A program made the translations under genes and the position numbers. Source: Thermodesulfobacteriota bacterium (GTDB lineage: Bacteria; Desulfobacterota; Desulfobulbia; Desulfobulbales; SURF-16). Taken from it: 64,000 nt of DNA. The DNA lies in contig JBDLIE010000011.1 in assembly GCA_039715015.1 (NCBI GenBank), positions 1,843-65,842 of the forward strand. Direction: 5' to 3'. Below are positions 17,747-50,888 of this stretch, piece after piece (the stretch's first letter is position 1; the number at the start of each line of letters is the position of its first letter). Under the pieces are notes generated by a model that saw only the letters and a program-made list of their open reading frames with translations, did not search any database and had not been told where the DNA came from.

Positions 17747-18904
17747 TTACGCTCTTTTTTGAAACACCGACCTGAGCTGGGGATCCCAGAGTGCCACCAG
17801 GGGAGAAAGGAAACGGCCTATGACTGGGCCGGGATCGCGGAGGCTAAGAAGATCGTCGCAGGTTGAGAGATCCCAGAAATCAGATGCTACCCGGCCGCGC
17901 TTGCTGACGAGATGGAGAAGGTCTGCAGGAAGGATATTACGCATCTTAAGGCCGACCTGGCTTTCAGGCAGCTCAAAGCCCTGGCCCCTGGCCCATTTAT
18001 AGAGAAGTAGCGGGAAATCGACTCCGGCCTTGATGGCCAGGGGTAACGAACCCCAAAAACGGGGGTTTATTTCCAGAAAATAGGCTGTGCCGGTGCGGGG
18101 ATCAACCTTAAACTCCACCATGGCAATCCCCTGCCATTTTATCTTTTTAAGCAAATTCACAGCATCACGCTCGGCCTGCTCATGGACTGTTGCCTGGCGC
18201 AGGGAGCTGGGCCCACCCTGGATGGGATATTCCCGTAGTCGTTTATGGGTAAAGGAGGCCAGGACATTTTGATCTTCGCCCATAAGTATTGAGACGCCAA
18301 GGCCGTAGCCGTCCCTGGCAACCATCTCTTGGGCCAGATATCTGTTGCCACTCTTGTGGATTATCGTCAGGGCTGCATCAAGGTCCTGAACATCATGGCA
18401 GTAAAACAGGCCGCGCCCTCCCTCGCCCATATCTGGTTTGAGAACCAGTGGCAGGCCAAGTTTATTAACGAGCTGTTCGCCATCTGTCTCTGGGGTAATG
18501 GGCTGGCCAGCAGGAGCTGTAATCCCGGAATCTAAGGCTGCCTTGTGTGCAGAAATTTTACTGGCTGCCTGCCGGAGGATTTCATGGGGAGCAAAGGGGA
18601 AGAGAATATGGGGTGTAAAGCGTTGCCGGGTCCGAGAAAGCAGGAGGAGAGTGGAAAGCTCCATGGGTATGAGGACATCGTAATCAAGGGTTTTGATCTC
18701 ACGATCAATGTCGTTTAGGAAGGCCTCAGGATTCTTGAGAGGGGCAGAGTAGGTGAAACGCCTGGAGGGGTATCTGCTCAGCATTCCGGCGGCCAGGGCG
18801 CTCGACTCACCCACCGTCACCCTGAGGCCATGGCTGGCCAGGGAGCGGATGGCAGCCACGGATTTGTTCCAGTGGCCATCGAGGATAAGGACGCGGGAGT
18901 TCAT
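17747..18904 (-). CDS. ATP-grasp domain protein (carboxylate-amine ligase type)
   Basis: 385 aa. The N-terminus MNSRVLILDGHWNKSVAAIRSLASHGLRV and the central/C-terminal ATP-grasp pattern (PLVLKPDMGEGGRGLFYC ... VEFKVDPRTGTAYFLEINPRFWGS) fit the family. Confidence 0.8.
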   Translation of the reverse strand: MNSRVLILDGHWNKSVAAIRSLASHGLRVTVGESSALAAGMLSRYPSRRFTYSAPLKNPEAFLNDIDREIKTLDYDVLIPMELSTLLLLSRTRQRFTPHILFPFAPHEILRQAASKISAHKAALDSGITAPAGQPITPETDGEQLVNKLGLPLVLKPDMGEGGRGLFYCHDVQDLDAALTIIHKSGNRYLAQEMVARDGYGLGVSILMGEDQNVLASFTHKRLREYPIQGGPSSLRQATVHEQAERDAVNLLKKIKWQGIAMVEFKVDPRTGTAYFLEINPRFWGSLPLAIKAGVDFPLLLYKWARGQGFELPESQVGLKMRNILPADLLHLVSKRGRVASDFWDLSTCDDLLSLRDPGPVIGRFLSPLVALWDPQLRSVFQKRA

Positions 18905-19818
18905 GATAATGAGGTGGTCAGCTCCTTGATATCGTCTAAAGAGGTGATACCCACCGTGGTGATGGAGCGATTGAGCCAGCGGATGATCCGGGTCAGGGCA
19001 CTGGTGGGATCGAGCACCACAAAGAGATCAATATCACGGTTCACAAGCTCTGCAATGGTGTGGTGCCAGTGCACTGTCTGCCAGAGCTGGTTTGCCACCT
19101 GATGGCCAATCTCCTTTGGAGAGTCATTAATATAGACTGGATGGCTGCCGGCAATGATCGGTAAGATAGGCGGCGACAGGGGCAGGGCCTCAAAGAATCG
19201 GTACAGGGCCGCACCTGCCTCCTGAAGAGGTTCACCATGGTAAGGATATTCAAAGGGAAGCTCCACCACCCGCAAAGCACCGGCCTCAAGGCAGGAGGCC
19301 TTAAAAGAGGCGAAATCCCCTTTGGCAATGGAGGCGATGGTCTGACTCTTGTTGTTAACCAGAGAAAGCCAGCCTTGTTGCGGCAGCCTATCAAGCTCCT
19401 CTTGGACATGATCAACAGGCAGGCCGATCACTGCCACCATGAGAAATTCATGGGGGGTATTGGTCAAGGAAATGAGATCAAAGGCGTGGCTGATGGCCTC
19501 CATGCCTTGACTTGGAGAGAGGCAGTTGCAACCGGCCATGGCAGCATAGAGACCGGAGCTGTAGCCGCTGATCAGAGAGGGCTTGACCCCTTGTTTCTTG
19601 AGGGTCTCGCTTAAGGTATGGCTCAGGCAGAAAACGCCCAGTTGGGCGGCGAGATCGCTTTCCACAGCGGTCTGGTGAAAATCATCATAGGCTGGACACG
19701 CCTGAATGCGGAGATCTTCATAGATCAAGCGCACCTCGTCGCCATACAGATCTGCCAGCGGCTTTTCCGGTACAGCACCCTGGCCGGGATAGAGAAAGGC
19801 GATTTTCGGTTGGCTCAT
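18901..19818 (-). CDS. Malonyl-CoA:ACP transacylase-like acyltransferase (FabD family)
   Basis: 305 aa with FLYPGQGA and the nucleophile elbow GYSSG (GxSxG). It overlaps the ATP-grasp gene by 4 nt. Confidence 0.8.
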   Translation of the reverse strand: MSQPKIAFLYPGQGAVPEKPLADLYGDEVRLIYEDLRIQACPAYDDFHQTAVESDLAAQLGVFCLSHTLSETLKKQGVKPSLISGYSSGLYAAMAGCNCLSPSQGMEAISHAFDLISLTNTPHEFLMVAVIGLPVDHVQEELDRLPQQGWLSLVNNKSQTIASIAKGDFASFKASCLEAGALRVVELPFEYPYHGEPLQEAGAALYRFFEALPLSPPILPIIAGSHPVYINDSPKEIGHQVANQLWQTVHWHHTIAELVNRDIDLFVVLDPTSALTRIIRWLNRSITTVGITSLDDIKELTTSLS

Positions 19819-19853: not shown

Positions 19854-21320
19854 CTACAACCTGATCTCCGGTGGTACTTCCTGGAAGTTGTCTTGGACCC
19901 ATTCCATCTGGCGCGCTTCATAATAGGCGTAACGCATAATGAGCTTATAGGCCATGCGGATGAATTGATTGGACGAGAAGAACATCTTCCAGAAGATGGA
20001 TGGCCGGGTGTAGTATTTTTTCAGGTATTTCTTCTGCAGGGCCAGGATCTCGGCGCCGCTATAGGCGTTATTATGGATCACCGGATGCATGAAATCATAT
20101 TTTGAAAAATCGCGCTCTTCAATGCGGCCATCCGCCTCGGCCTGGGCATAATAACGGGTGCCGGGCAGGGGCGTGGTCAGGGTCATGACCAGGAAGTCAC
20201 CGATCTGGGCCGCAAATTTATAGATGGTCTGCAAGGTCTCTTCAGTGTCATCTACATCGCCGAACATGACGTTGGTCATTACCATGATGCCGTGGGAGCG
20301 CAGCAGCTCGGCCGCCTCTTTGATCTGCTCTACGCTCTGGTTCTTAGTATAATTCTTCAGAGTCTCCGGGGAGATCGATTCCACCCCCAGCATGACCTCG
20401 TAGAGACCAAGCTTTTTATACTCGGGCAGCAGGTCGCGGTCGCGGAGGATATCCTTGATCCGGGACTGGAACCAGAAATCGCATTTGAGGTTTGATTTGC
20501 CCAGGGACTCCAGGAACGATTCATTGCGGGCTCTGGTCTGGTTGAAGGAATTCTCGTTAAAGACAAAGAGGGATTTGCCAAATTTTTTATTAAGCATCTC
20601 CATCTCTTTGACCACCAAGGGGCCGCTCCTACCGCGCCAGTTGGCCTGCCAGAGCTGCGACTCGGAGCAATAGGAGCAATGGTCTCCGCAGCCGCGGCTG
20701 GTGGAGATGCCCACCGCCCGTCTCCCCATGCCATGCAGGTAGTAGGTGGGGTTGTCCATGTCCATCAGATGGTAGCCGGGCATGGGAAGGGTGTCGAGGT
20801 CGTCGATCAGGGCCCGGGGGCTATTGCATACTATTTCGCCATCCTTCTGATATGCCACTCCGGCAATGGTACAGCCATTTTTGCAACCAGGCAGGCCTTC
20901 AAGGAGTTCAACAAAGGTCTTTTCGCCTTCACCCAGAATGATGAAATCAACCTCTGGGGCCTGGCTGAACATCACCTCGTAGTTCAGGGTGAAATGACCG
21001 CCACCACCGATGATGGTGGCTTCAGGCAGGGTGCGGCGCACCAGGCGGGCGGCATGGATGGCATCCTTATGGAAGGTGGCAGCTTGGCTGGTAATACCGA
21101 CGACATCGTAGTTACCTTGGCGCAGGCGGTTTTCCAGGTCGGTCCAGGGCTGACTCAGGGTGGTGGAGTCGATAACTTCAATATCGTAGCCCTCGCGTTC
21201 CATATAGGCCCCCAAGGCCATGAGGCCGGGGGAGGGCATCCACATACGCAGGGCAGCAAAAATCTGATGGGGCGGGTCAAGCAGTAGTATCTTCACAGCT
21301 AAATCGACTCCAGTAATCAA
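19854..21320 (-). CDS. B12-binding-domain radical SAM enzyme (subfamily A; paralogue of 50932..52476)
   Basis: The CxxxCxxC motif is RGCGDHCSYCSES. The N-terminal Rossmann-like B12-type domain contains KILLLDPPH...GGGGHFT. The start is uncertain (TTG 21320 or GTG 21296). Confidence 0.9.
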   Translation of the reverse strand: MITGVDLAVKILLLDPPHQIFAALRMWMPSPGLMALGAYMEREGYDIEVIDSTTLSQPWTDLENRLRQGNYDVVGITSQAATFHKDAIHAARLVRRTLPEATIIGGGGHFTLNYEVMFSQAPEVDFIILGEGEKTFVELLEGLPGCKNGCTIAGVAYQKDGEIVCNSPRALIDDLDTLPMPGYHLMDMDNPTYYLHGMGRRAVGISTSRGCGDHCSYCSESQLWQANWRGRSGPLVVKEMEMLNKKFGKSLFVFNENSFNQTRARNESFLESLGKSNLKCDFWFQSRIKDILRDRDLLPEYKKLGLYEVMLGVESISPETLKNYTKNQSVEQIKEAAELLRSHGIMVMTNVMFGDVDDTEETLQTIYKFAAQIGDFLVMTLTTPLPGTRYYAQAEADGRIEERDFSKYDFMHPVIHNNAYSGAEILALQKKYLKKYYTRPSIFWKMFFSSNQFIRMAYKLIMRYAYYEARQMEWVQDNFQEVPPEIRL

Positions 21321-22188
21321 AAAAATGATAAAATTGATCAGGATGGCGGCGGATATTCTTTTCGAATATTCCTGCCAGTTCCTGTGTTTTCTCGGCGATT
21401 AATTCGTTATTGTCCTTGCCCGCCACTCGGGAAACTTTGAGTGGTTTCTCCATCCAGGCCCGGTAGCAGCCATCAGGTCTGCGGATGATAAAGACCGGAA
21501 TCACCGGGGCACCAGTGGCCTGGGCCAAGGCCATAACTCCTGAAGGAAAATACACCTTTTTGTCAAAAAAGGTAACTGCCGACTTTTTACCGCCTTCATA
21601 GCGGTCGCCAAGCATGGCTATCACCTTATTGTCCTTGAGAAGGCGGGCCATCTTGATAATAGTGCCGTTATCCTCCGGGTCGATATGGATTGTCTTGATG
21701 CCAAGGCTGCCGCGCACCGTGTCTCGGTACTCCTGAACACCTTCCTCCTCATCTTTCAAGGTCAGGGTATAGATTGGAGAGCCGCGTAGGGCAAAGGTGA
21801 CGCCGCCCAGCTCCCAATTGCCAAGATGGGGGGTAATCAGAATGGCGCCATTGCCTTGGTCCAGGGCCTCTTGTATGTGCTGCGTGCCGATTTCTTCGGC
21901 CACGGTTTGCTGGTAATTTTCTTTAGTGAGGCGGTGGATAAGGACATAGTCACGTAAATACCAACCATAATTGGCAAAGAGCCTCCGCACCGTCTTTTTA
22001 ACCTGCGGGGCATTTTCCGGCAGGCCAAGGATAATAGAGGTGTTTCTCAGCAGCGGTTTACGTTTGGAACCCCAAAGCAGGTAGTAAAAATAACTCACCA
22101 CATGATTTTGGATGCGCTGCCACCAGACAGGTACGAGGCGGGCAAAAAAATAGGTGAGGAAGAGATAGAGTTTGCGGGGGATGAGCAT
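21277..22188 (-). CDS. Lysophospholipid/lipid A-type acyltransferase (LpxL/HtrB family)
   Basis: 303 aa with an N-terminal TM segment. ITPHLGNWELGG matches the family H(x)GNWE motif. Confidence 0.8.
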   Translation of the reverse strand: MLIPRKLYLFLTYFFARLVPVWWQRIQNHVVSYFYYLLWGSKRKPLLRNTSIILGLPENAPQVKKTVRRLFANYGWYLRDYVLIHRLTKENYQQTVAEEIGTQHIQEALDQGNGAILITPHLGNWELGGVTFALRGSPIYTLTLKDEEEGVQEYRDTVRGSLGIKTIHIDPEDNGTIIKMARLLKDNKVIAMLGDRYEGGKKSAVTFFDKKVYFPSGVMALAQATGAPVIPVFIIRRPDGCYRAWMEKPLKVSRVAGKDNNELIAEKTQELAGIFEKNIRRHPDQFYHFFDYWSRFSCEDTTA

Positions 22189-23666
22189 TATTTGTTGCTG
22201 ATAATATTTGCGGCAAAACAGCCGGATAGGGCGCTGCCGACTATGCCGTGGGCAGGGCGGTTATAATGCCCAATCCACAGCAGGTTGTCAAGCTTGGTGG
22301 CCAGGGGGGGGCGGCCAGGACCAACCTGTCCTAAGGCCGAGTCAAAGCCGTACATGGCCCCTTCTTCATTGCCGGTTCTGTCGATAAGGACCTGGGGAGT
22401 GGCCTGAACAGTAAAGATGTTGCTGGCGGCAAGGTCCAAGCCTGTTCTTTCCCTGACAATTTCAAAGATATCTCCCTGCAGTTTATCAATAGCCTCCCGG
22501 TTGGGAAATTCTTCGGCAAAGATGGAGGCCTTGGGGGCATGGACCAGCACCTTCATGGCGTGATGTCCCTCTGGAGCAAGATCTGGATCAAGGAGCGAGG
22601 GTGTTGTGATCACCAGGTGCAGGCCGTTCCTATAAATCCCTTTGGCAATGGCCTTGGCCTCAAGCTCAGGATCGTCGCTGGTATGCAGCGACACAAAATA
22701 GGGCCAATTCTCAGGCAGGGCATCTTCTGGCAGGGCCACATAAAAGAGCAGCGCCGAAGGCGAGACCGTATAGCGCTCCAGGTCAAAGACCTTGCCATAA
22801 AGAAGGCTTTCATCTTGGAGCATGGCCTGGCCGTGGAAGGGATTCAGAGCGCCAATAAACCAGTCTGCCTGAAAGGCTGTAGTGTCCTCAGTCACCACCT
22901 CCGTAACTCCTTTACTGGTATTCTTGATGGCCTTGATCTCTTGACCGGTGTGGATGGTTCCGTGGTTGTCAATGATGGCCTGGCGCAGCATGTCAGTGAG
23001 ATGCAGCATGCCACCTTTAGGATAAAAGACGCCGTCCTTTAAAACCTTGGCCCAGAGTACGGCCACAAAAATATAGGAAAGCTCACTGGGAGGCAGGGTG
23101 GTGGGCAGGGCGGAAAGGGCGTGGATTATGTCGTGGTGGCCGTTGAAAAATCGTTCCAGAATGGTGCCGTGGGAGTGACGGGCGCAACGAAATAAGGTGG
23201 GATAGAGAAAGGGCATGCAGAACTTTTTCCAGACAGGGGCTGCTTCAAAGGCCATAAACTGCCGGCCAAGCTTGGCAGTCAGTTTGCTGTAGGCTGCCAG
23301 GTTTTTTTCATGCTCAGGAAACCGTTCAGCAAGGGACTCCACATAAGCTTGCGGGTTGCGATAGTCGAGTTGCAGCTCAAAGCTGGGATAGATATTGCGG
23401 ATGGCCGGGATGGCCAGAAATTCAAGATCCGTATCTATGCCAAGCTCGCTGAAGATGGCATGAAACTCGCTGCCTGGTTTGCAGGCCGCTAAAAAGGCGC
23501 CGGTGGCATCAAAATAAAAGCCGTCGCGCCGGAAACCGGTGACGTAGCCCCCGGTTTTTTCCTCTTTCTCCAAGAGGGTGACATGGTGGCCGCGTTTGCT
23601 AAGCAGGGCAGCGGCGGTGAGACCGGCCATGCCGCCTCCCATAATGACAACGGAATTTTTAGGCAC
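22188..23666 (-). CDS. FAD-dependent oxidoreductase, phytoene desaturase (CrtI) family
   Basis: The dinucleotide fold is VVIMGGGMAGLTAAALLSKRGHHVTLLEKEEKTGG. It is 492 aa, and the C-terminal WIGHYNRPAHGIVGSALSG resembles CrtI-type ends. Confidence 0.85.
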   Translation of the reverse strand: MPKNSVVIMGGGMAGLTAAALLSKRGHHVTLLEKEEKTGGYVTGFRRDGFYFDATGAFLAACKPGSEFHAIFSELGIDTDLEFLAIPAIRNIYPSFELQLDYRNPQAYVESLAERFPEHEKNLAAYSKLTAKLGRQFMAFEAAPVWKKFCMPFLYPTLFRCARHSHGTILERFFNGHHDIIHALSALPTTLPPSELSYIFVAVLWAKVLKDGVFYPKGGMLHLTDMLRQAIIDNHGTIHTGQEIKAIKNTSKGVTEVVTEDTTAFQADWFIGALNPFHGQAMLQDESLLYGKVFDLERYTVSPSALLFYVALPEDALPENWPYFVSLHTSDDPELEAKAIAKGIYRNGLHLVITTPSLLDPDLAPEGHHAMKVLVHAPKASIFAEEFPNREAIDKLQGDIFEIVRERTGLDLAASNIFTVQATPQVLIDRTGNEEGAMYGFDSALGQVGPGRPPLATKLDNLLWIGHYNRPAHGIVGSALSGCFAANIISNK

Positions 23667-26085
23667 GGCGACCTCGTAATTGGAGGAGGGAAGAAAGGGT
23701 GATAACCGAATAGATAAAGCAGCTGGAAACGCCGATAATGGTCAACATGCCCATGGAAGAGAGGACGTGGTACTGGGCCAAGGCCAGGGAGCCAAAGCCA
23801 AGGCAGGTGGTGAGCGTTGTCAGCAAAATAGAACGGCCTGTGGAGGTCAGGGTCTGGCCGATATCACCGGTTTCCCTAAAGCGATCCATAATATGGATAC
23901 CATCATCCAAACCGATGCCGATGAGGATGGGAATGATGATGAAGTTAATCAGGTTGATGGAAATGCCCAGGTAGCCCATGAGTCCGGCGGTGGTTGTGAG
24001 GGCCAGGATGGTGGGCAGCAGAGCGAGGATCGTTTTTTTTAAACTGCGGAAAAAGAGAAGCAGGATAATAACCACCAGGGAGGAGGCCAGGAGCACTGTT
24101 TTAAGAAGGCCTGTTTTGGCAGAATCCATCAGGCTTCCCAGGGCCCGATCAAGGCTGACCACCTGAATCCCCGAATCAGAGGCCAGCATCTTTTCCTCAA
24201 GCCTGACCGCAGCCCCTTCAGAAAGGGCATTGACCCAGGTAACGCCGCTGATGCCCTTATCGTCTGTAAAGAAAAAGCGTTGGTGTAAGGGAAGGAGGCG
24301 GTCCAGAAAGGAGTTGCCTTTGGAGCTGTCCTTGCCAAGATCAGTTAGAAAAGAGAGCAGATGAGGGAAGCTCGCCACCTCCAGGCCATAGCTGGCAAAG
24401 GCCTTGTTGATTCTGGCTTGCTCGAAGTTTTCAAGCCTAAGTTGCCTGCCGCCACTCATGGTGGTCAGCGAGGCCCAGCCGTTGATATCTGCAGCGGGCA
24501 GTTCAGCGATTATTGTATCTACCTGTCTGGATTTCTGCCAAAAAGCGTCTTCGGAAGGTGATTGCCAAGAGACGAGCAGAGGAATGATGCCATTACTAAA
24601 ATGTTGATGGATATCCTGGCGCACCTGTACCGCCTCCAGGCCTTCTGGGTGAAGGGCCTCAAGGTTTCGTTCAAAATGAAGTTTTTGGAGGCCTGGCAAG
24701 GATGCCATGAAAAAAAAGAGGCTTATCCCCAAGCAGAGAACAGGCCTTTTTTTGACAAAAGCACCGATGATATTGATGCCCAGGAGGGAAAAAGGCTTAC
24801 GATTATGGGTCCAGGTTTGGCCCTCAAGCCAGTTAAGCCAGGCCGGTAAGGCCCAGAGGATGGTGATCAGACAGAAAAAAAGGCCCAGGCTCACCAGCCA
24901 GCCGATCTGGCGCAGCACCGGGCTTGCCGTGGTAGTGAGGACGGCAAAGGCAGTGAGGCTGGTAAGGCCACCCACAAGCACTGCCGAGCCGGTGCGCATA
25001 ACAGCCCGCCGGGTGGCCACAGCTGGAGGCTGGTCAGCAAGGCGTTCCGAGGCATAGCGGTCATAGACATGGATGGCAAAATCCACACCCAGGCCAAGAA
25101 CCACAGTGGCAAAGGCCACCGCAATCATATGAACCTGGCCGAAGGTGACGGCCATGAAGCCCAGGGCCAATTGGAGACCAACGCCCAGGGGAATAATGAT
25201 AAAGAGGAGAACGGTAAAGCGGCGGTAGGCAAAGAGAAAAAGAAGGCCGATACCGAGGACTGAACCAAGCAGGCAGTTGAGGATGTCGCCACGCATCAAG
25301 GCCTCTTCCTGGGCGGCAATGGCGTAGCCCCCGGTAAGACCGATTTCGAGATCCGGATAGTTGGCAAACACGGCATGGCTCTTTGCCATCAGGTCGATGG
25401 CAAAGGCCTTATTTGAGCCAGGTTGGCCGGGGGTGGCAATCAAGATCAGGGCTTTTTTGTCGGCGCTCAGCATTTCAGCACCATCGGCAAAGGCCATGGA
25501 GCCCTGCATGGCATGGAGCTTGTCGATAAAGAAACGGCGCAGGTTCAAGGGGTCCAGGCTGACGATCTTAGTGAGCATGGGAGCGCCAGGGGTGGCAAGC
25601 AGGGCCAGGGAGCGGCGGACCTCGTGGTCTATCTCCTGTGTTGATGCCAGAAAAGCGCTGAGTTGGGCAAGATCTTTTTCCGTGAGAAAGAGGGAGGGGG
25701 ATTCAAGATAGGTGGTGAGAAGATCAATGAAATCATCCGAACTCACCGCCTCAGCTTTCAGCATGGTTATAGATTTATAACCGGGGCTGCCGTTAATCTC
25801 CAGGCTGCTGAGCCTGCTGATAATTGTATTACTCTGGGAAAGCAGGTTTCCTGAATCGGCTTTGTCACTGACCAGGATATAGAGCTTGTCCTGGCCGTTT
25901 GAAGCGGTCACCGTATGGGAGAGCAGTTGAAAGGCCCGGTTGTCCTGGGGCAACAGGGCAAGGATGTTCTGCTCAAAGCGAAGCAGCCCGGTGAGAAGCA
26001 CCGCCACAACCACCACTGCCCCGAAACTGGCCAGTACCCTGCCGGGACGTTCGGTTATGAAACGCAGCAAAACATTCATGATCAT
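23659..26085 (-). CDS. MMPL/RND-superfamily lipid exporter
   Basis: 808 aa. It has two blocks of about 5-6 TM helices, each preceded by a large soluble loop, which is the typical MMPL topology. Confidence 0.85.
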   Translation of the reverse strand: MIMNVLLRFITERPGRVLASFGAVVVVAVLLTGLLRFEQNILALLPQDNRAFQLLSHTVTASNGQDKLYILVSDKADSGNLLSQSNTIISRLSSLEINGSPGYKSITMLKAEAVSSDDFIDLLTTYLESPSLFLTEKDLAQLSAFLASTQEIDHEVRRSLALLATPGAPMLTKIVSLDPLNLRRFFIDKLHAMQGSMAFADGAEMLSADKKALILIATPGQPGSNKAFAIDLMAKSHAVFANYPDLEIGLTGGYAIAAQEEALMRGDILNCLLGSVLGIGLLFLFAYRRFTVLLFIIIPLGVGLQLALGFMAVTFGQVHMIAVAFATVVLGLGVDFAIHVYDRYASERLADQPPAVATRRAVMRTGSAVLVGGLTSLTAFAVLTTTASPVLRQIGWLVSLGLFFCLITILWALPAWLNWLEGQTWTHNRKPFSLLGINIIGAFVKKRPVLCLGISLFFFMASLPGLQKLHFERNLEALHPEGLEAVQVRQDIHQHFSNGIIPLLVSWQSPSEDAFWQKSRQVDTIIAELPAADINGWASLTTMSGGRQLRLENFEQARINKAFASYGLEVASFPHLLSFLTDLGKDSSKGNSFLDRLLPLHQRFFFTDDKGISGVTWVNALSEGAAVRLEEKMLASDSGIQVVSLDRALGSLMDSAKTGLLKTVLLASSLVVIILLLFFRSLKKTILALLPTILALTTTAGLMGYLGISINLINFIIIPILIGIGLDDGIHIMDRFRETGDIGQTLTSTGRSILLTTLTTCLGFGSLALAQYHVLSSMGMLTIIGVSSCFIYSVITLSSLLQLRGRRA

Positions 26086-26269: not shown

Positions 26270-27862
26270 TTAATACGGTCTTTGATAATTTTTCGGCTTG
26301 AGCTTGAGCAGGGTGGAGGCCACGGTGCAGAGCAGGCGGCCCTGCCAAGGCCTGCCGTATTTTTTCGGGTTTGGGTGGAGAAAGCAGAGGCGTTTGCATT
26401 TAATCTTCTGCAGGCGCTGGGCAAAATCATCGTAGGGCCGACTCATGTCCAGGGGCTTTTTGAAGAAGTCCCGGAGATAATAGCCAAAGGATGTATAGGT
26501 CGAGTTGCCCTGCTCAGCATGGGCATTATAAAAATCAGTGAAGGTCTTGCGGTCGGTGACAATGGAGTAATGATCCGGGTCGATCTGCCAAGGCGCTCCC
26601 GGTTCCATTTCGATGGACAGGGTGCGCAGGCCGCGGACATGCTTGTAACGATCCATGATGATCTTGCGTAGTTTAAAGGTGTCCTCCATGACCTCTTCAT
26701 TTTCACCGGGCAGGCCATAGGTGAAGAAGATCTCGGTGGAGATGCCCATGGCATCAAGCTTGTCCATCTTGGCCAGGAAGGCCTCGGTGGTAAAGCCCGG
26801 GCCCTTATGACGGAGGCGAAGCTCTTCATTGCCGCATTCCGGCGACATGGCAATAATGGAATCTTCGCCCGGGAAGGTCTTGTGGAACTCATCGATAAAC
26901 TCGTCAGCAGGCAGGCCGTTGCACTCAAACATCCAGTTGGTCTTGATGCCTTCGGCCCGGATCTTCTTCCAGAGTTCGATGAAATACTCCTGGCTCACCG
27001 GCTCAGGATCGGTGGCCGTGTGCATGGTCTTGTAGCCGGCGGCAATGCCCTCCTTGATGGTCTGGATGACCGATTCGTGACTGCGGTAGATAAAGCCCAC
27101 CCGCTTACTGATATGGCGCTGTTGAGGGATATGGGAGCCCCCGCACCAGGTACAGTTAAAGGGACAGCCACGGCCAATGGCCAGGGGCAGCAGAGGCGAC
27201 TGGATGGTGAATTGCTTGAAGTTCTGCTCTTTGCTAAAACTCTTGGCGTAGAAAAAGGGCAGACCGATATATTTTATATAGGTATCGCTATGACGCAACA
27301 GGGAGAAGTTGCTGTAGTTCAGGGCTGAGACCATCTCGGCATCGCCCACGTAGGTATGGTCGTTTTCCACCACCTGGTTATTGCGACGCCAGGTAAGATT
27401 AGGAATTGGCTCCAGACTGCTGCCGGCATCCAAGGCCTTCAATAGTTCAAGAACCGGGACCTCGCCGTCACCGCGCACCACCGCATCGATCATCGGATAG
27501 TCGGCAATGATCTGGTCATGGAAAAAGGAGGCGGTATAGCCGCCGATAAAGATGAAGATGTCAGGCCGAAGCTCCTTTAATTTGCGGGCTGCCTCGATAA
27601 CGTCGTAGGCCTGGTAATGCCAGTGCATGGACATGCCAATGGCCTTGATCTCCGGCTTGTCCATCACCAACTCGTCAATCTTGAAGAGAGGGTTCTCCAC
27701 CCACTCAACGCCGACGTGGATGATCTCGGTATCAAAACCGTTCTTCTGAACATAATCGCCAATGGCCATCAGGCCCATGGGCATATAGTTTATCCAGATA
27801 AAATCGCCGATGGGCTTATAGCTGTTGTTGAACTTGGGTACGTGGAGAAAGAGAGTTTTCAT
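26270..27862 (-). CDS. B12-binding-domain radical SAM enzyme (subfamily C)
   Basis: 530 aa. The CxxxCxxC motif is RGCPFNCTWCGGS, and the N-terminal B12-type domain contains KAIGMSMHW...IFIGGYTASF. Confidence 0.9.
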   Translation of the reverse strand: MKTLFLHVPKFNNSYKPIGDFIWINYMPMGLMAIGDYVQKNGFDTEIIHVGVEWVENPLFKIDELVMDKPEIKAIGMSMHWHYQAYDVIEAARKLKELRPDIFIFIGGYTASFFHDQIIADYPMIDAVVRGDGEVPVLELLKALDAGSSLEPIPNLTWRRNNQVVENDHTYVGDAEMVSALNYSNFSLLRHSDTYIKYIGLPFFYAKSFSKEQNFKQFTIQSPLLPLAIGRGCPFNCTWCGGSHIPQQRHISKRVGFIYRSHESVIQTIKEGIAAGYKTMHTATDPEPVSQEYFIELWKKIRAEGIKTNWMFECNGLPADEFIDEFHKTFPGEDSIIAMSPECGNEELRLRHKGPGFTTEAFLAKMDKLDAMGISTEIFFTYGLPGENEEVMEDTFKLRKIIMDRYKHVRGLRTLSIEMEPGAPWQIDPDHYSIVTDRKTFTDFYNAHAEQGNSTYTSFGYYLRDFFKKPLDMSRPYDDFAQRLQKIKCKRLCFLHPNPKKYGRPWQGRLLCTVASTLLKLKPKNYQRPY

Positions 27863-27872
27863 TTTTATTGAT

Positions 27873-28027
27873 AGCCACGGAATCCACGGAAAGACACGGA
27901 AAGTTTTTTATAGAGGTGTTTTTCCAGATTATTGCGCGGCTGAATGAGGTTTATACGTATAGTCGCCTGATCATGTCATGGTTTCCCAGCAAGAAATTTT
28001 CAGTGGATTTCCGTGGGTTCCGGGGCC
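27873..28027. repeat. Structured intercistronic repeat element (ccacggaa family), copy 1
   Basis: Left arm agccacggaatccacggaaagacacggaaag (27873-27903) matches right arm cagtggatttccgtgggttccggggcc (28001-28027) at 21 of 27 positions when complemented. It is homologous to the element at 50826-50888. Confidence 0.65.
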
Positions 28028-28035
28028 AAAAAAAT

Positions 28036-29223
28036 CTACTCGGAGCCGAAGATGCGGCCATCGGTGATGACCTTGGCGAAATTTTTAAGGTTGTCGGCCT
28101 GGTCCTGGGCCACACCTTGATTATAAACGGCGATCTTCTCAAAAAACTTCTGGCAATAGCCGCAGTCATCGCAGGACATACGCCGGCAGTCGTGATTCTG
28201 GAAAAATTTCAGGAAGCCGTCCAGCTCTTTATTAGGGATTTGAATGGCGTCATTAAACGAAAAATTCATCAAGCCAGCCACGGCTTGAACCTGCGCCATA
28301 TCCACCATGTCCGGCTTGTTGAAATATTCCATGTTGGGCGGCAGGAAAGAGCCCTTGTTGGGCAGGGTAAGCAGGTCGATAAGGTTGCCGTCAAAGCTGC
28401 GGTCGCTATAGGCCTTCACCGCAGTGGTCAGGGCGCCTGAGGTCTTGAAACGCTCCACGACCTTAAAGCGGCTGATACCGATCTCCTCGTAATAGTGAAG
28501 ATCCTCAGGACGGATCCAGCGCGCCTTGAGGATATTAACCGGGTCCTCCAGCTTCTGGCTTGAGCAGATCACGTAAGGCAGCTGCAAATAGCAATAATCG
28601 TTATGGCTCTGGGTCTGGGAGGCATGGCCGTCATGGTTGACGTGCTCAAATTGCTGGGCGCATTCCCACAGACAGCAGGGGTTGGCAATAACCTCCAGGG
28701 GGATGTTCACCGAATCGTTGATCGCCTTTAAGGTGTCGAAATCGCGGTTGAGCATTTCGTCGATGATCAGCTCATCAACGCCCATATCTTCATACTGTTT
28801 GGCCCGGGTCACGGTGTTGATCCGGCTCACCGAAGAGACCTTGATAAAGAAATGGGGGTAATGCTCCTTAACCAGACGAATAAGATAGGGGATGGCAATG
28901 GTCAGGGCATCGACCTTGATCTCGGTGAGCCAGTCGAGGAGCTCACGGATCTGCCTGTAGCCCTCCTTGGTGTACTGGACATTGGCCAGACTCAAGGTGT
29001 TCAGCAGGTAGGAAAATTTAATGCCCTGCCCATGGAGAAGGCCGACGTGCTTGGCAATATCCTCACGGCTCACCTGGGGCAGGAGAAAGGAGGGGCGGCA
29101 GCCGCCCACCACATCGTCAGCAAGCTTGCCGTAGACATGGGTGACCGGAAAATCGTTAAGCATGGCCGGCAGTTTTGGGTCCCAATTGGTTGATACGCGT
29201 ATTTCCATCGTGCTACTTCTCAT
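28036..29223 (-). CDS. Peptidase U32 family protein (UbiU/UbiV/TrhP-type Fe-S enzyme family)
   Basis: The pattern GQGIKFSYLLNT ... KVDALTIAIPYLIRLVKEHYPHFFIKVSS ... IPLEVIANPCCLWECAQ fits the U32 TIM-barrel layout. A C-terminal Cys cluster reads HDCRRMSCDDCGYC. I chose the ATG at 29223 (GGAG 7 nt upstream); the ORF track extension to 29349 overlaps the upstream gene. Confidence 0.6.
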   Translation of the reverse strand: MRSSTMEIRVSTNWDPKLPAMLNDFPVTHVYGKLADDVVGGCRPSFLLPQVSREDIAKHVGLLHGQGIKFSYLLNTLSLANVQYTKEGYRQIRELLDWLTEIKVDALTIAIPYLIRLVKEHYPHFFIKVSSVSRINTVTRAKQYEDMGVDELIIDEMLNRDFDTLKAINDSVNIPLEVIANPCCLWECAQQFEHVNHDGHASQTQSHNDYCYLQLPYVICSSQKLEDPVNILKARWIRPEDLHYYEEIGISRFKVVERFKTSGALTTAVKAYSDRSFDGNLIDLLTLPNKGSFLPPNMEYFNKPDMVDMAQVQAVAGLMNFSFNDAIQIPNKELDGFLKFFQNHDCRRMSCDDCGYCQKFFEKIAVYNQGVAQDQADNLKNFAKVITDGRIFGSE

Positions 29224-29258
29224 GGTTGAGCTCCGGCAAGGGAGCAGATTAATCTTCG

Positions 29259-29753
29259 TTATAATTTCAGGCGTGTTGACTGGCGGATGAGAAAGAGTCC
29301 GGCAATCAGGGCAATACTGCCAACCACAAGGGCGATGGCGTTGAGCCAATGCCAGTTAGTTTCTAAAAAAGAGTGTTGTGGATCATCAGGATCATAATGT
29401 ACATCCACCAGGCTGCCAAGGGGATATTGGCCGGCCTCTTGGCGGGCATGGGCCGGATCGTTGGAGCCGTATTGGCCCTGGGAGATGCTGTCGCCCTGAT
29501 AGGTGCGGCCCTCTACCTCATAACGGTACTGGACATCGGCTATAAGGGTTGACGAGCCACCATCCGTGCCCCGCTGCCAGCGGGTCTCTGATTTGATGAT
29601 AACGCCGCGGCAGGTGGGCCATTCCTGCATGGCCTGGGCCTCAAGAACCGTTTTGGCGCCGTAGGTCAGGGCAGCAACGGCCACCAGGCAAAAAAGAATG
29701 CCCATGACCATGAAGATTGTTTTCTCCTCTTCTGCTGTTGCCTGTCTGCTCAT
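29259..29753 (-). CDS. DUF3592 domain membrane protein
   Basis: 164 aa with N- and C-terminal TM helices. The pattern WPTCRGVIIKSE ... YRYEVEGRTYQGDSIS ... GSLVDVHYDPDDPQHSFLE is typical of DUF3592. Confidence 0.7.
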   Translation of the reverse strand: MSRQATAEEEKTIFMVMGILFCLVAVAALTYGAKTVLEAQAMQEWPTCRGVIIKSETRWQRGTDGGSSTLIADVQYRYEVEGRTYQGDSISQGQYGSNDPAHARQEAGQYPLGSLVDVHYDPDDPQHSFLETNWHWLNAIALVVGSIALIAGLFLIRQSTRLKL

Positions 29754-33239: not shown

Positions 33240-33698
33240 TTAGTATCCTTCTGCCAGGGCAATGGTGAAACGGCCCTGCGAGAGCTTTTGGTCGTTAACA
33301 AATATGCTGCCCTGGGCCAGGATGTATTGGCTCCAGAATTTTATAATCTCTACCCTGGCTTCAATGGTGTCGCCTGCTATTGCTGGCGCAGAGCTGGTGA
33401 AATCGAGATCGCCGCCGGCCAGATAACCCATGCCGGGACTCGCTGTTTCTCCAGGGACATTTTGCTGGTCAGCAGGGGGCATGCTGGCGCAGATAATGGC
33501 TGTGGTCTGGGCCATGATTTCCAGATGGAGAATATTAGGCATCACCATCTTATTTGCCGCAAGCAGCAGTTCGTCAGCACTGAGCCGTTTAATTCCAGTA
33601 CCTTTTTGACCGGGTGTAATGTCAATGACCTTGTCCAGGAAGAGAAAGGGCGGCCGGTGGGGCAGGGCAGCCAGAATGGCGGCGTGGTCAAACTCCAT
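33240..33698 (-). CDS. FabA/FabZ-type 3-hydroxyacyl-ACP dehydratase (hotdog fold)
   Basis: ILAALPHRPPFLFLDKVIDITPG, with a His in LHLEIMAQ. 152 aa. Confidence 0.85.
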   Translation of the reverse strand: MEFDHAAILAALPHRPPFLFLDKVIDITPGQKGTGIKRLSADELLLAANKMVMPNILHLEIMAQTTAIICASMPPADQQNVPGETASPGMGYLAGGDLDFTSSAPAIAGDTIEARVEIIKFWSQYILAQGSIFVNDQKLSQGRFTIALAEGY

Positions 33699-36023: not shown

Positions 36024-36293
36024 ATGCCCGGGGTAGATAGTGCACTAATTGCAGAGCTCAAGCAGCTTGTTGTTACGGCTCTGCGTATGGAAGATTTTGA
36101 TCCTGAAGAGATCGGTGATGATGAGCCTCTTTTTGGCGATGAAGGTCTGGGGCTTGACTCAGTTGATGCCCTTGAGCTGGTTGTTCATATTGAGCAGCAG
36201 TACGGCATCCAGATAGAGGATGAAGAGGTTGGCCGCAAGGCCTTTGCCTCCATAACTGCTCTTGCCGAGTTTATTACGGAAAAGAAAGTGTAA
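36024..36293 (+). CDS. Acyl carrier protein
   Basis: 89 aa with the phosphopantetheine attachment motif GLDSVDALELV. Confidence 0.9.
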   Translation: MPGVDSALIAELKQLVVTALRMEDFDPEEIGDDEPLFGDEGLGLDSVDALELVVHIEQQYGIQIEDEEVGRKAFASITALAEFITEKKV

Positions 36294-40082: not shown

Positions 40083-41444
40083 ATGCGAGTCCTTCTTTTT
40101 TCATTAAATAAGGAAATCCTTCCTGAGCCAGCCTTCCCCTTGGGCTTGGCCTTTATTGCCGGAGCCCTGGATCAGGCTGGCCATGAGTGTGAAGTCTTTG
40201 ATCTCTGTGTCCAGGACATGACCGATCTTGCTCCTGTCATACAACGTTTTCAGCCTGAAGTGGTCGCCCTCTCCCTGCGCAATGTTGATAATGTCGCCTA
40301 CCCGGAAACCACTACCTATATTCCCCATTACCAGAAAACGGTATCTTCCCTGCGAGAATTGACCGATGCGGTCTTGGTGCTTGGCGGCCCAGGCTATTCT
40401 CTCTTTGCGGAACGACTCCTCCTTGAATTGCAATGCGATTACGGCGTGGTGGGCAGTGGCGAAGAGGTTATTGTCCGCTTGCTTGATGCCCTGCAGGGCA
40501 AGGGTGAGGCTGAAACCATTCCTGGTCTTCTCATCCGCACCGGTGAAAAGGTTGTCTCTGGAAGCGGCAGTTTGGCGGGCGGACAGTGGTTATCTCCCCT
40601 GTATGAAAAATTTCCCCTGGAGCATTATCAGGAAATCGGCGGCATGGCCACGGTGCAGACCAAGAGGGGCTGTCCATTTACTTGCATTTATTGCAGTTAT
40701 CCGGTACTTGAAGGCCGACAGGCGAAAACACGGCCCATTGAACAGGTTATTGCCGAACTCAGAGAGATCCGCAGCAGGGGCATTCGTGAGGTCTATTTTG
40801 TTGATTCGGTCTTCAATAATCCGCCTGACTATGCCAAGGACCTCTGCCGGAGCATGCTGCAGGCCAAGCTGGATTTGAAATGGACCTGTTACGCCGCCCC
40901 TCTCAATTTTGATGAGGAGATGGCGGCCCTCTTTGTGGAGAGCGGTTGCCTGGGTGTCGAGTTTGGCACAGACACCTTGTCGCCTGTGATGTTGAAAAAT
41001 CTCGGCAAGAGTTTTTCCGTTTCTGAGGTTTTGGAGATAAGCGACATCTGCTATCAACAGAAACTACCCTTTTGTCATGCCATCCTGGTGGGCGGGCCGG
41101 GTGAGACAAAAGAGACCCTGCAGGAAACCGTGGATAACCTGGTTAAGACCCGGGCCTCGGCGGTTATCTTCATGACTGGTCTGCGTATTATACCGGCCAC
41201 AAAGCTTTACGAAATTGCAATGGATGAAGGGCTGATCAACGAAAAGACTGATATGGTCGAGCCCCAATTTTACGTTTCCCCTGCTATCGAGCCCCTGGAA
41301 CCGGAAATTAATAGGTTGTCACGGCTCCATAAGACATGGATCTTCCCCGGCCATCAGATCCGCTGTTCTGAACATCTGGCCAAATTTATGCGAGAGAGAG
41401 GCGCACGCGGTCCACTATGGCTCCATATGACTCCCCCCCGGTAA
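40083..41444 (+). CDS. B12-binding-domain radical SAM enzyme (subfamily D)
   Basis: The CxxxCxxC motif is RGCPFTCIYCSY. The N-terminus MRVLLFSLNKEILPEPAFPLGLAFIAGAL ... VVALSLRN ... LVLGGPGYS is B12-type. Confidence 0.9.
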   Translation: MRVLLFSLNKEILPEPAFPLGLAFIAGALDQAGHECEVFDLCVQDMTDLAPVIQRFQPEVVALSLRNVDNVAYPETTTYIPHYQKTVSSLRELTDAVLVLGGPGYSLFAERLLLELQCDYGVVGSGEEVIVRLLDALQGKGEAETIPGLLIRTGEKVVSGSGSLAGGQWLSPLYEKFPLEHYQEIGGMATVQTKRGCPFTCIYCSYPVLEGRQAKTRPIEQVIAELREIRSRGIREVYFVDSVFNNPPDYAKDLCRSMLQAKLDLKWTCYAAPLNFDEEMAALFVESGCLGVEFGTDTLSPVMLKNLGKSFSVSEVLEISDICYQQKLPFCHAILVGGPGETKETLQETVDNLVKTRASAVIFMTGLRIIPATKLYEIAMDEGLINEKTDMVEPQFYVSPAIEPLEPEINRLSRLHKTWIFPGHQIRCSEHLAKFMRERGARGPLWLHMTPPR

Positions 41445-46288: not shown

Positions 46289-47068
46289 ATGACTTCCATG
46301 AAAAAACTCTTTTTTTTCACCACAGAGACATTCTTTTCAATACCCCCTCGAGGGGTACAGAGGCATTCTTTTCAATACCCCCTTGAGGGGTACAGAGGTT
46401 TGAAATCTTTTCTGGTACTCATTTTTGGGTCTTTGTGCCTCTGTGGTGAAATTTTTTGTCCTTTTATCACCAGGGCAGACGAGGGGCGTCTCCTTGAGCA
46501 GGCCGAGGCCCAGGACGTCCTGCAGCGCATCAAAGAAAGCCAGGCAGACCTCACTACCATCACCGCTTCCTTTGTTGAAGAACGGCGCATCGCTGTCCTG
46601 GCCAACCCCCTTGTTTTTTCGGGGAAGGTCTATGTTGAACCGGAAGATTTTCTTTTCCTTCAATATGAGAAGCCCCTGCGTCATATAATGAAGATGGCAG
46701 GAGACAGCGTGCTTTTTTTTGTTGAAGACTCTGAAACGGCTGATATGGTTGATCTTGCCGGAGCCCAGGAAAGAGGGCAGCGGCCTGATCTTTTTAACTG
46801 GTCGCCAAAGAATTTTCAGGGTGAAGTGCGCGAGGTAAAGGATGGCTATTTGCTTGTCGACCCGAACGCCAGCGCTGGTAGCCGGCAGGTACGGGTTGTT
46901 GTCGACAAGAGTACTCTGGTGGTACGCCATATCCTTCTTGTTGACGAGTCGGGCGATGAGACCAGGATCACTCTTTCAGATGTCCGGCTTAATGAAGAAA
47001 TTTCAGAACATATTCGCAACTATGCGCTGCCGCAAGGTGTGCGTGTCCATAAACTAAACCAGCCATGA
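46289..47068 (+). CDS. LolA-like lipid/lipoprotein carrier family protein
   Basis: ITASFVEERRIAVLANPLVFSGKVYVEPEDFLFLQYEKP fits the LolA-like pattern seen in aryl polyene clusters. The 5' end is uncertain: codons 14-37 are a tandem DNA repeat, and an in-frame TTG at 46400 would give the signal peptide MKSFLVLIFGSLCLCG. Confidence 0.7.
   Translation: MTSMKKLFFFTTETFFSIPPRGVQRHSFQYPLEGYRGLKSFLVLIFGSLCLCGEIFCPFITRADEGRLLEQAEAQDVLQRIKESQADLTTITASFVEERRIAVLANPLVFSGKVYVEPEDFLFLQYEKPLRHIMKMAGDSVLFFVEDSETADMVDLAGAQERGQRPDLFNWSPKNFQGEVREVKDGYLLVDPNASAGSRQVRVVVDKSTLVVRHILLVDESGDETRITLSDVRLNEEISEHIRNYALPQGVRVHKLNQP
46329..46398. repeat. Tandem 35-nt repeat (2 copies), each containing a palindrome
   Basis: cattcttttcaataccccctcgaggggtacagagg (46329-46363) and cattcttttcaatacccccttgaggggtacagagg (46364-46398) differ at 1 position. 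The core palindrome is tacccc-N-ggggta. Confidence 0.75.
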
Positions 47069-50825: not shown

Positions 50826-50888
50826 GGCCACGGAACCCACGGAACTTTCGGAAAAAACCAAGAAAAATTTCTCAGTGGATTCCGTGGC
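50826..50888. repeat. Structured intercistronic repeat element (ccacggaa family), copy 2
   Basis: ggccacggaacccacggaa (50826-50844) matches cagtggattccgtggc (50873-50888) at 14 of 16 positions when complemented. It shares the 15-nt string gtggattccgtggct with the reverse complement of copy 1. Confidence 0.65.

Follow-up and report, generated by a model that had tools for sequence, protein, structure and literature searches.

The window, by which we mean the whole stretch of 64,000 nucleotides that was analysed, contains two genes for CrtI-like flavoenzymes, and an A-type (BchE-like) radical SAM gene lies downstream of each. We consider it likely, at about three chances in four, that these genes belong to one old, co-inherited ladderane-type pathway, that they form ancient pairs of paralogues and not copies of a two-gene cassette, and that the sub-operons of the pathway were packed together in the lineage of the window. 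It is this packing of conserved sub-operons into one divergent supercluster which would explain why each CrtI-like gene has an A-type radical SAM gene after it.

The cluster and its two arms

All four genes are located in a divergent 'ladderane-type' lipid supercluster of ~40 kb, which comprises about 35 genes on its two arms as annotated with Pfam and NCBIfam. The host genome is a Desulfurivibrionaceae/Desulfobulbaceae MAG of 3.0 Mb in 100 contigs. Genes of the fatty acid synthase (FAS) type encode an acyl carrier protein (ACP; 36024..36293, plus strand; PF00550, 45.3 bits), a KS/CLF, a KS-KS fusion and a FabA/FabZ-like dehydratase (33240..33698, minus strand), the latter being a weak match (PF07977, 22.1 bits for a cut-off of 23) with an LPHRPPFLFLD motif. 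The ACP and dehydratase genes are positioned away from the KS genes. Further genes encode LuxE/LuxC, GT2, LpxL-like acyltransferase, LolA-like and MMPL proteins. No enoyl reductase is evident among the annotated ORFs of at least 100 amino acids and a few smaller ones, and no aryl-starter genes were identified in the cluster. Eight radical SAM genes are present. One of them (40083..41444, plus strand) belongs to TIGR04072, 'lipid biosynthesis B12-binding/radical SAM protein' (391.9 bits, cut-off 360), and its product is 37% identical to kuste3342, the namesake of the type. The gene serves as the marker of the cluster type, which is already known.

The genes of the minus arm, from the MMPL gene to rSAM_A1, overlap or abut. 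The MMPL/RND-type transporter gene (23659..26085; PF03176) overlaps the start of CrtI_A (22188..23666; 492 aa) by 8 nt. CrtI_A is directly followed by the gene of an LpxL-type (lipid A late) acyltransferase homologue (21277..22188; PF03279, 116.8 bits), not by rSAM_A1. The latter (19854..21320; 488 aa) comes next and may alternatively start at a GTG in a GVG context 8 codons further in; the gene of a FabD-like acyltransferase (18901..19818; PF00698) is its constant neighbour. On the same strand, the block 26270..29349 holds a U32-family gene (28036-29349) before rSAM_Ta (26270-27862), which encodes a TIGR04190-like B12 radical SAM protein.

On the plus arm, a fusion of a KS with a putative degenerate KS (47065..49383; 772 aa; PF00109/PF02801 in the N-terminal half) overlaps CrtI_B (49380..50819; 479 aa) by 4 nt. 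Then follow rSAM_A2 (50932..52476; 514 aa) and rSAM_B3 (53202..54599), a B12 radical SAM protein of the kuste3608/kuste2803 type which is 32-33% identical to kuste2803 and kuste3608. In this otherwise overlapping operon, rSAM_A2 alone is flanked by long spacers, of 112 nt and 725 nt. The first bears a hairpin element on the plus strand (50826..50889; CCACGGAA x2 ... TTCCGTGG) with a fold of -29.8 kcal/mol (z -2.06), whose motif is found in 8 copies in the window for 1.8 expected.

Both CrtI-like proteins possess the amine-oxidase fold of PF01593 (72 bits for CrtI_A, 101 for CrtI_B) with an N-terminal GxGxxG, and a full-length alignment with the CrtI structure 4dgk was obtained. Neither reaches the cut-off of 238.1 of the phytoene desaturase family TIGR02734 (130.0 bits for CrtI_A, 127.3 for CrtI_B). 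Two homologues from Kuenenia, kuste3336 and kuste3607, did not convert phytoene to lycopene in E. coli (PMC4790861). The A1 and A2 proteins are assigned to class B (cobalamin-dependent) radical SAM enzymes by their N-terminal B12-binding domain (PF02310; 67.2 and 65.6 bits), the radical SAM core (PF04055; 53.0 and 50.4 bits), all above cut-off, and the motif CxxxCxxC, which reads CGDHCSYC in A1 and CGYRCKFC in A2, at residue 211 in both. Their scores of 251.1 and 242.2 bits amount to about half the cut-off of the BchE equivalog TIGR02026 (481.35). All four ORFs were confirmed at the coordinates given by the first-pass annotation, as was the shared transcriptional order of the two arms.

Paralogy and gene neighbourhoods

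Aligned over 504 columns, CrtI_A and CrtI_B are 27% identical (E 1e-36); for A1 and A2 the value is 39% over 484 columns (E 5e-124); identity of A1 and A2 to the six other radical SAM proteins of the cluster is at most 25%. When every ORF in the 100-contig genome is considered, the two members of each pair are each other's best match, and the closest in-genome relatives are those that had been proposed. The first-pass annotation went further and suggested that the CrtI-like and the A-type enzyme form a dedicated two-step couple, which might create an alkene and then methylate or cyclise at that site, and which may have been duplicated as a unit for two positions or two chains. The reciprocal relationships and the identical gene order on both arms are in line with such a couple, as is the divergence of the paralogues (27% versus 39%), which resembles the ratio among orthologues (53-62% versus 79-88%). 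When gene order is shuffled within the arms, both A-type genes come to lie no more than two positions after a CrtI-like gene with a post hoc chance of about 0.01.

The trees point to old splits. The A1 clade (22 rows) and the A2 clade (24 rows) have support of 100 each, and a third A-like clade clusters with A1 (support 86), which speaks against duplication of a couple. The CrtI tree resolves an A clade (100/100) and a B clade (100/99). In the maximum likelihood tree the Kuenenia PDH types are grouped with CrtI_B (93/81), and constraining CrtI_A and CrtI_B together gives p = 0.077 in the AU test. Clade membership was assigned by identity thresholds picked after the trees had been seen. Of the distant genomes, 16 of 16 hold one A1-type and one A2-type gene, and 15 of 16 hold both CrtI types. 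Judged from these phylogenies, CrtI_A/CrtI_B and A1/A2 appear to be ancient paralogue pairs, each with its own orthologues across at least seven Desulfobacterota families. Since both splits are older than the divergence of these families, a recent copy of the cassette is not the origin of the arrangement. The earlier proposal is correct about the paralogues but probably not about duplication as a unit, as the splits are old and the adjacency is limited to certain lineages.

At the level of genomes, the sets with A2-type and CrtI_B-type genes are identical: 21/21 for the phylum (401 genomes; 7 families) and 8/8 for the order (301 genomes). This perfect co-occurrence would suit a couple, and so would the fact that the CrtI_B-A2 adjacency arose or persisted in two or more distinct subclades of A2. 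However, all other pathway genes are expected to co-occur in the same way. The co-occurrence and the arrivals of A2 beside CrtI_B, at least two in number, fit a specific link between the two enzymes and plain membership of one pathway equally.

The side-by-side position itself is not the conserved feature and is limited to few lineages. CrtI_B is directly followed by A2 in the genus of the window, its sister genus, Dissulfurirhabdus thermomarina and one Desulfobacterales MAG, a distribution which requires at least two changes on the A2 tree. Across 23 loci, the gene upstream of A2 is CrtI_B in 6 cases and a U32 gene in 8; the other 9 have no cluster gene there, although many loci come from fragmented MAGs and part of these 'no neighbour' counts may be assembly breaks; a CrtI gene is thus missing upstream in 17 of the 23 loci of the A2 clade. 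In most lineages, those beyond the family of the window, Dissulfurirhabdus and the Desulfobacterales MAG, A2 is unlinked from CrtI_B and often comes after a U32 gene, and a gene of the rSAM_B type follows CrtI_B. Outside the window, such an rSAM_B gene comes next in 11 of 17 informative loci (8/8 of the Syntrophia type, 3/9 of the window type), and the KS-KS fusion lies upstream of CrtI_B in 9/9 informative window-type loci. The first-pass annotation had named conservation of the pair as a module, with adjacency kept in related genomes, as a check; the pair persists as shared presence and, locally, as adjacency, but it is not kept side by side elsewhere.

The minus arm behaves similarly. The order CrtI_A, LpxL, A1 is kept in 10/12 loci with orthologues at least 49% identical (window-type), as the couple would predict, and LpxL lies upstream of A1 in all 12. 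In contrast, Syntrophia-type A1 genes reside in an LpxL/FabD/TE operon devoid of a CrtI gene (9/9 loci), and in 28 loci of the Syntrophia type (about 40 homologues) the gene after the CrtI_A-like one is rSAM_Ta. The MMPL gene recurs upstream of the CrtI_A clade in 6/13 informative window-type and 21/36 informative Syntrophia-type loci. Furthermore, two genomes (G005, G006) retain CrtI_A without any A-type gene, and the CrtI-like genes of anammox bacteria occur without an A-type partner, as judged from a comparison with four radical SAM proteins of the Kuenenia clusters, none of which is an A-type match. Given these findings, we regard the dedicated couple as unlikely.

The isolated position of rSAM_A2, set apart by spacers and hairpin, also raises the question of whether it is a BchE-like enzyme outside lipid synthesis, for instance in tetrapyrrole or cofactor modification, which reached the end of the plus arm by chance in the lineage of the window. 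BchE is its best curated model, A2-type genes adjoin hemC at three loci (L089-L091), and at another (L093) the neighbours are U32, a UbiE-type methyltransferase and CCG/LUD genes. Moreover, no other protein of the cluster is as conserved as A2 (81-95% identity versus 50-77% for CrtI_B), but conservation is also high in the remaining radical SAM genes (79-88%). Against such a role, the phyletic pattern of A2 is that of CrtI_B in the 401 + 301 genomes and far from universal (21/401), A2 is missing from all Desulfobulbales genomes without the cluster, and it joined the cluster in two or more lineages. This explanation is improbable, and A2 is more likely a member of the pathway.

Proposed division of labour

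Four sub-modules recur across genomes: the KS-KS(CLF) gene, CrtI_B and rSAM_B, in the order of anammox Cluster I; the MMPL gene followed by CrtI_A; the LpxL-like, rSAM_A1 and FabD-like genes; and the U32 gene followed by a B12 radical SAM gene, either A2 or rSAM_Ta. For the single ladderane-type pathway, we propose that KS/CLF, KR and DH would build an unsaturated acyl-ACP, with no evident enoyl reductase. The FAD enzymes would alter its double-bond pattern by desaturation next to an alkene, isomerisation, saturation or hydration. The B12 radical SAM enzymes may carry out O2-free C-methylation, cyclisation or desaturation of the chain. The LpxL-like enzyme would move the chain onto an acceptor, and the MMPL and LolA-like proteins could export the product. 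In this scheme the partner of CrtI_B is most probably rSAM_B3, and A1 most probably acts at the acyl-transfer stage.

One can also imagine that the pathway of Desulfobacterota recruited the BchE-like A1 and A2, which are lacking in anammox bacteria, and that CrtI_B, A2 and rSAM_B3 form an O2-independent unit of three enzymes. The flavoenzyme would generate a conjugated or allylic site, and the BchE-like enzyme, perhaps aided by the U32 protein, would use it for an oxidative or ring-forming step on the chain, in analogy to the formation of ring E by BchE. We consider this elaboration quite unlikely. If it is true, sulfur-cycling anaerobes would make a membrane lipid, carbocyclic or heavily branched, that has yet to be described.

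Comparison with known systems

The ladderane-type cluster is probably related to aryl-polyene (APE) clusters. APE/flexirubin clusters share with the window KS/CLF, ACP, DH and KR and the lack of an obvious ER. By general description, they also have in common GT2, a thioesterase, LolA-like and MMPL/RND export and an LpxL-like acyltransferase. APE clusters are not known to contain B12 radical SAM or CrtI-like genes.

Knowledge of clusters of the present type, both from anammox bacteria and from deltaproteobacteria, dates back to 2009 (Rattray 2009, PMC2649909). 'Cluster I' of Kuenenia stuttgartiensis (kuste3603-3608) encodes amxACP, amxFabZ, FabF2, FabF-mut, a phytoene-dehydrogenase-like PDH and a B12 radical SAM protein, and a second cluster spans kuste3335-3352 (PMC2649909; PMC4790861). 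The order from kuste3605 to kuste3608 is KS, mutated KS, PDH and radical SAM (PMC4790861). It is mirrored in the window by the KS-KS fusion, CrtI_B and rSAM_B3, with A2 intercalated, which is seen only in some lineages. Using the Kuenenia proteins of PMC4790861 Table S6 as queries, kuste3608 and kuste2803 were assigned to the rSAM_B subfamily (33-35% to the best window paralogue; 33% between kuste3608 and rSAM_B3), and kuste3343 matched the SPASM radical SAM protein of the window at 27%. Two CrtI-like paralogues, TIGR04072/kuste3342-type and SPASM radical SAM proteins, an LuxE-like ligase, GT2 and methyltransferases are common to the window and the anammox clusters. However, identity of CrtI_A and CrtI_B to the PDHs of Kuenenia does not exceed 22-26%, the window has a fusion of KS and CLF in place of the separate genes of Cluster I, and it adds the BchE-like A1 and A2, the TIGR04190-like radical SAM protein, U32, LuxC and MMPL/LolA export genes. 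The host, a sulfur-cycling Desulfobulbales MAG, also differs from an anammox planctomycete. The published ladderane hypothesis has a flavoenzyme and radical SAM chemistry act together on an acyl chain (PMC2649909, PMC4790861); that the anammox cluster itself makes ladderanes (concatenated cyclobutanes) has yet to be demonstrated (bioRxiv 10.64898/2026.05.19.726425).

Closer in taxonomy, 'ladderane-like' FASII clusters of reportedly unknown function occur in Desulfotalea psychrophila, Geobacter and Pelobacter (Rattray 2009, PMC2649909). These belong to the same phylum, Desulfotalea even to the same order, and contain several phytoene-dehydrogenase-like and SAM radical genes in FAS-like clusters. 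In addition, antiSMASH flags 'ladderane' BGCs in Desulfobacterota MAGs (PMC9902471). One locus compared (G134) is only distantly related, with a CrtI-like gene 25% identical and no A-type radical SAM gene.

CrtI-family flavoproteins acting on membrane-lipid chains instead of carotenoids offer parallels to CrtI_A and CrtI_B, here compared by description. UfaD, from the furan fatty acid pathway of Rhodobacter sphaeroides, is a phytoene-dehydrogenase-like fatty-acyl desaturase which acts beside an existing double bond and apparently requires O2 (PMC7380195), whereas the host of the window is probably an anaerobe. Has (hydroxy-archaeol synthase), of the CrtI family, hydrates a double bond, and the B12 radical SAM enzyme Ted desaturates lipids (bioRxiv 10.1101/2025.10.20.683597). 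For A1 and A2, the best curated model is BchE. The window lacks a photosynthesis or hopanoid context. The class B radical SAM enzymes BchE, HpnR, HpnJ, GrsA/B and Ted share with A1 and A2 the B12-binding and radical SAM architecture, and all of these named enzymes act on hydrophobic substrates.

The divergent supercluster and its paralogous pairs

The window carries a divergent supercluster of ~40 kb (roughly 15.1–54.6 kb), whose best related loci are found in MAGs labelled Desulfurivibrionaceae or Desulfobulbaceae. The minus arm comprises rSAM_B1, a FabZ-like dehydratase, LuxE, LuxC, an SDR, DUF3592 and U32 genes, the TIGR04190-like B12 radical SAM gene rSAM_Ta, MMPL, CrtI_A, LpxL, rSAM_A1, a FabD-like gene, an ATP-grasp gene, a NodB-type deacetylase and others. 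The plus arm comprises DUF4410, ACP, thioesterase, GT2, KS and CLF genes, a TIGR04072 radical SAM gene (391.9 bits, cut-off 360), a methyltransferase, a SPASM radical SAM gene, rSAM_B2, a second methyltransferase, a LolA-like gene, a KS-KS fusion, CrtI_B, rSAM_A2 and the kuste3608-type rSAM_B3 (53202–54599). Among the plus-arm genes, which otherwise overlap or abut, rSAM_A2 is the only one with long flanking spacers (112 and 725 nt). Hairpin elements (CCACGGAA/TTCCGTGG) occur in the spacers before rSAM_Ta (27875–28016) and before rSAM_A2 (50828–50887). Eight copies of the motif are present in the window against 1.8 expected, and the segment 50815–50935 folds with −29.8 kcal/mol (z −2.06).

The first-pass annotation had placed all open reading frames of interest exactly. 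CrtI_A (22188–23666, minus strand) and CrtI_B (49380–50819, plus strand) are amine-oxidase/CrtI-fold FAD enzymes which score 72 and 101 bits with PF01593, and 130 and 127 bits with TIGR02734, both under the curated cut-off of 238. The LpxL-type acyltransferase (21277–22188, minus strand) matches PF03279 with 117 bits. rSAM_A1 (19854–21320, minus strand) and rSAM_A2 (50932–52476, plus strand), hereafter A1 and A2, are B12-binding radical SAM enzymes with a CxxxCxxC motif at residue 211 in each. Their best curated model is BchE (251 and 242 bits), whose cut-off of 481 neither reaches. Among solved structures, only distant matches were retrieved for the radical SAM enzymes (AprD4, 9ccb, TokK, CysS) and for the flavoenzymes (CrtI, a gamma-carotene desaturase). 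With its TTG start, A1 overlaps LpxL by 44 nt. Since a GTG eight codons downstream gives a better fit to the A2 N-terminus (VKILLLDPPH vs LKFLLIDPPH), the true start may be at 21296.

The claim of paralogy between the arms is borne out. CrtI_A and CrtI_B share 27% identity (E 1e-36), A1 and A2 share 39% (E 5e-124) and at most 25% with six other nearby radical SAM genes, and each pair consists of reciprocal best paralogues when the entire 3.0-Mb assembly (100 contigs) is considered. The pairing of CrtI-like and A-type genes is a real, non-random observation.

The sequences indicate that both duplications are old. A1 and A2 proteins form clades of 22 and 24 rows in the rSAM-A tree, each with a support of 100, and a third subfamily, located beside TIGR04072-like genes, joins A1 with a support of 86. 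This BchE-like subfamily (L134–L137, 36–39% identical) comes from genomes of one family, and the TIGR04072-like radical SAM gene is immediately downstream every time. The CrtI tree resolves an A clade (100/100) and a B clade (100/99) inside a lipid-cluster superclade (100/100) that is separate from Pantoea CrtI and further CrtI-like proteins, and the phytoene dehydrogenase (PDH) types of Kuenenia lie on the CrtI_B side (93/81). A sister relationship of CrtI_A and CrtI_B is not rejected in the AU test (p = 0.077) when locus L060 is included; the rejection of a single clade with this locus left out (p = 0.0006) was a result caused by L060 and was discarded.

Gene neighbourhoods across genomes

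Adjacency was examined from the side of each of the four genes. The CrtI_A side comprises 76 loci out of 185,579 species genomes. Among CrtI_A orthologues (at least 49% identity), LpxL is the next gene in 10 of 12 informative loci, with A1 after LpxL, so that the order CrtI_A > LpxL > A1 holds at close range. It breaks down, however, in the distant, Syntrophia-type loci: about 40 homologues (35–40% identity) show MMPL > CrtI_A-like > rSAM_Ta, and no A-type gene was found downstream of the CrtI_A-like gene in these loci. Seen from A1, LpxL is upstream in all 12 of the near, window-type loci, while in all 9 Syntrophia-type loci it belongs to a separate operon devoid of a CrtI gene. Such an operon typically reads SPASM > rSAM > LpxL > FabD-like > TE > A1 > rSAM_B2 > TIGR04072 rSAM > SDR > KS.

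On the plus arm, the order KSKS > CrtI_B > A2 > rSAM_B3 is shared by the window's genus, a sister genus and Dissulfurirhabdus thermomarina (G481, identified via protein P0060 with 99.8% identity), and one Desulfobacterales MAG carries CrtI_B > A2 at an arm end. Elsewhere, by contrast, an rSAM_B-type enzyme directly follows CrtI_B, in three other window-type loci and in all 8 informative Syntrophia-type loci. On the tree, A2 genes directly after CrtI_B fall into two separate A2 subclades, which requires at least two changes. The gene upstream of A2 (23 loci) is CrtI_B in 6 and U32 in 8, and 9 have no cluster gene there; in three of the latter (L089–L091), porphobilinogen deaminase (hemC) is downstream of the A2-type gene. 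There the A2-type gene (56–57% identical) is preceded by a divergent rSAM_B-like gene and is distant from any CrtI.

The neighbourhoods seen from these four sides therefore delineate conserved blocks which differ from the CrtI/rSAM-A pairs: KS-CLF > CrtI_B > rSAM_B (kuste3608-type), MMPL > CrtI_A, LpxL...A1...FabD-like and U32 > radical SAM. The pairs that were first noticed are the outcome of block joining in the window's lineage, a lineage-specific packing.

Some individual loci deserve mention. In the cultured D. thermomarina, both arms are present in the window's gene order on two contigs (L132, L133), with A2 as the most conserved protein (81% identical, vs 50–51% for the CrtI-like genes). 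A 994-aa open frame around A2 in this genome suggested a CrtI_B::A2 fusion; this was rejected, as the genes are 36 nt apart in different frames, and the frame is a by-product of the GC-rich genome. A single-contig genome of the same order (3,523,383 bp) carries no more than a distant counterpart of the cluster (L087, at ~2.09 Mb), with a CrtI-like gene (25% identical), KS, SPASM and TIGR04072-like radical SAM, GT2 and LpxL-like genes.

One pair that recurs is a U32-family gene with a B12 radical SAM gene directly downstream. It is seen as U32 > rSAM_Ta in the window (26270–29349, minus strand) and as U32 > A2-type in eight Syntrophia-type loci (L093, L114–L117, L119–L121), where U32 is 44–47% identical to that of the window; L093 contains both. 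The U32 proteins characterised so far act as O2-independent hydroxylases, so the two genes may form an anaerobic oxidation couple.

Co-inheritance of the four genes

Co-occurrence across distant, order and phylum genomes places the four genes in one co-inherited gene set. Each of the 16 distant genomes that were reached from the loci carries a single A2-type gene and a single A1-type gene; both CrtI types are present in 15. Within the order (301 genomes), the eight genomes with an A-type radical SAM gene are identical to the eight with CrtI_B orthologues. In the phylum (401 genomes), the 21 genomes with an A2-type gene (E ≤ 1e-200) are precisely those with a CrtI_B-type gene (E ≤ 1e-75); they come from seven families, and the two genes are adjacent in only two of these genomes. 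As the remaining pathway travels along, this pattern does not mark CrtI and rSAM-A as specific partners of each other.

The lack of a CrtI neighbour at four A2 homologues (55–57% identical) had raised the possibility that A2 is a housekeeping gene, a reading weakened by the perfect co-occurrence with CrtI_B in whole-genome searches. In G005 and G006, two genomes from the genus of the window, a solo CrtI_A orthologue (68% identity) is present, and A1, A2 and a CrtI_B orthologue are absent. The solo gene adjoins a different KS/rSAM/CrtI-like cluster (L085, 4665–6134 on G005:C3, and L088 in G006).

Possible chemistry and relation to ladderane-type clusters

The two pairs had been read as a functional couple, in which desaturation creates an alkene for subsequent radical modification, duplicated once per arm. 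The components are indeed paralogous and belong to the same pathway, and flavin plus radical chemistry is plausible, but a duplicated CrtI plus rSAM-A cassette is not supported. Because the cluster encodes ACP, KS/CLF, a KR-type SDR and a FabZ-like DH while no enoyl reductase was found in it, the scaffold is likely an unsaturated acyl-ACP, as in aryl-polyene clusters. Gene order does not fix the order of reactions, since both enzyme families show varied chemistry on lipid chains. The CrtI family includes the desaturase UfaD (PMC7380195) and the hydratase Has (bioRxiv 10.1101/2025.10.20.683597), and B12 radical SAM enzymes perform methylation, cyclisation and even desaturation, as in Ted (bioRxiv 10.1101/2025.10.20.683597). 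The alkene could also come from the radical SAM enzyme and then be processed by the flavoenzyme. In the reading preferred here, CrtI_B would work with rSAM_B3, and A1 would join the LpxL-like and FabD-like proteins in the acyl-transfer stage. A2 is probably a pathway member whose partner is possibly the U32 protein.

The supercluster is of the ‘ladderane’ type, for which clusters were described in 2009 in Kuenenia stuttgartiensis, Desulfotalea psychrophila, Geobacter and Pelobacter, with two to three phytoene-dehydrogenase-like and several SAM-radical genes, and desaturation followed by radical cyclisation was already proposed then (PMC2649909). Two Kuenenia PDH homologues do not carry out the conversion of phytoene to lycopene (PMC4790861), and ‘ladderane’ BGCs have been reported by antiSMASH in Desulfobacterota MAGs (PMC9902471). 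By 2026, experiments had not tied any enzyme of the anammox cluster to ladderanes or another product. For these clusters, conserved and lineage-packed neighbourhoods can now be told apart; the former indicate which enzyme pairs merit joint testing. As the cultured D. thermomarina shares the arrangement of the MAG, lipidomics and heterologous expression become feasible beyond the slow-growing anammox bacteria.

The Kuenenia proteins (sequences from Table S6 of PMC4790861) can be mapped onto the window. Kuste3608 and kuste2803 correspond to the rSAM_B subfamily (33–35% to the best paralogue), kuste3342 to the TIGR04072 gene (37%) and kuste3343 to the SPASM enzyme (27%); none of these four radical SAM proteins is an A-type counterpart. 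Kuste3336 and kuste3607 share 22–26% identity with CrtI_A and CrtI_B alike. The order of kuste3605–3608 (KS, mutated KS, PDH, radical SAM) is matched in the window by KS-KS fusion > CrtI_B > [A2] > rSAM_B3, with A2 as an additional gene. The locus adds a new member to a kind of cluster that is known but uncharacterised.
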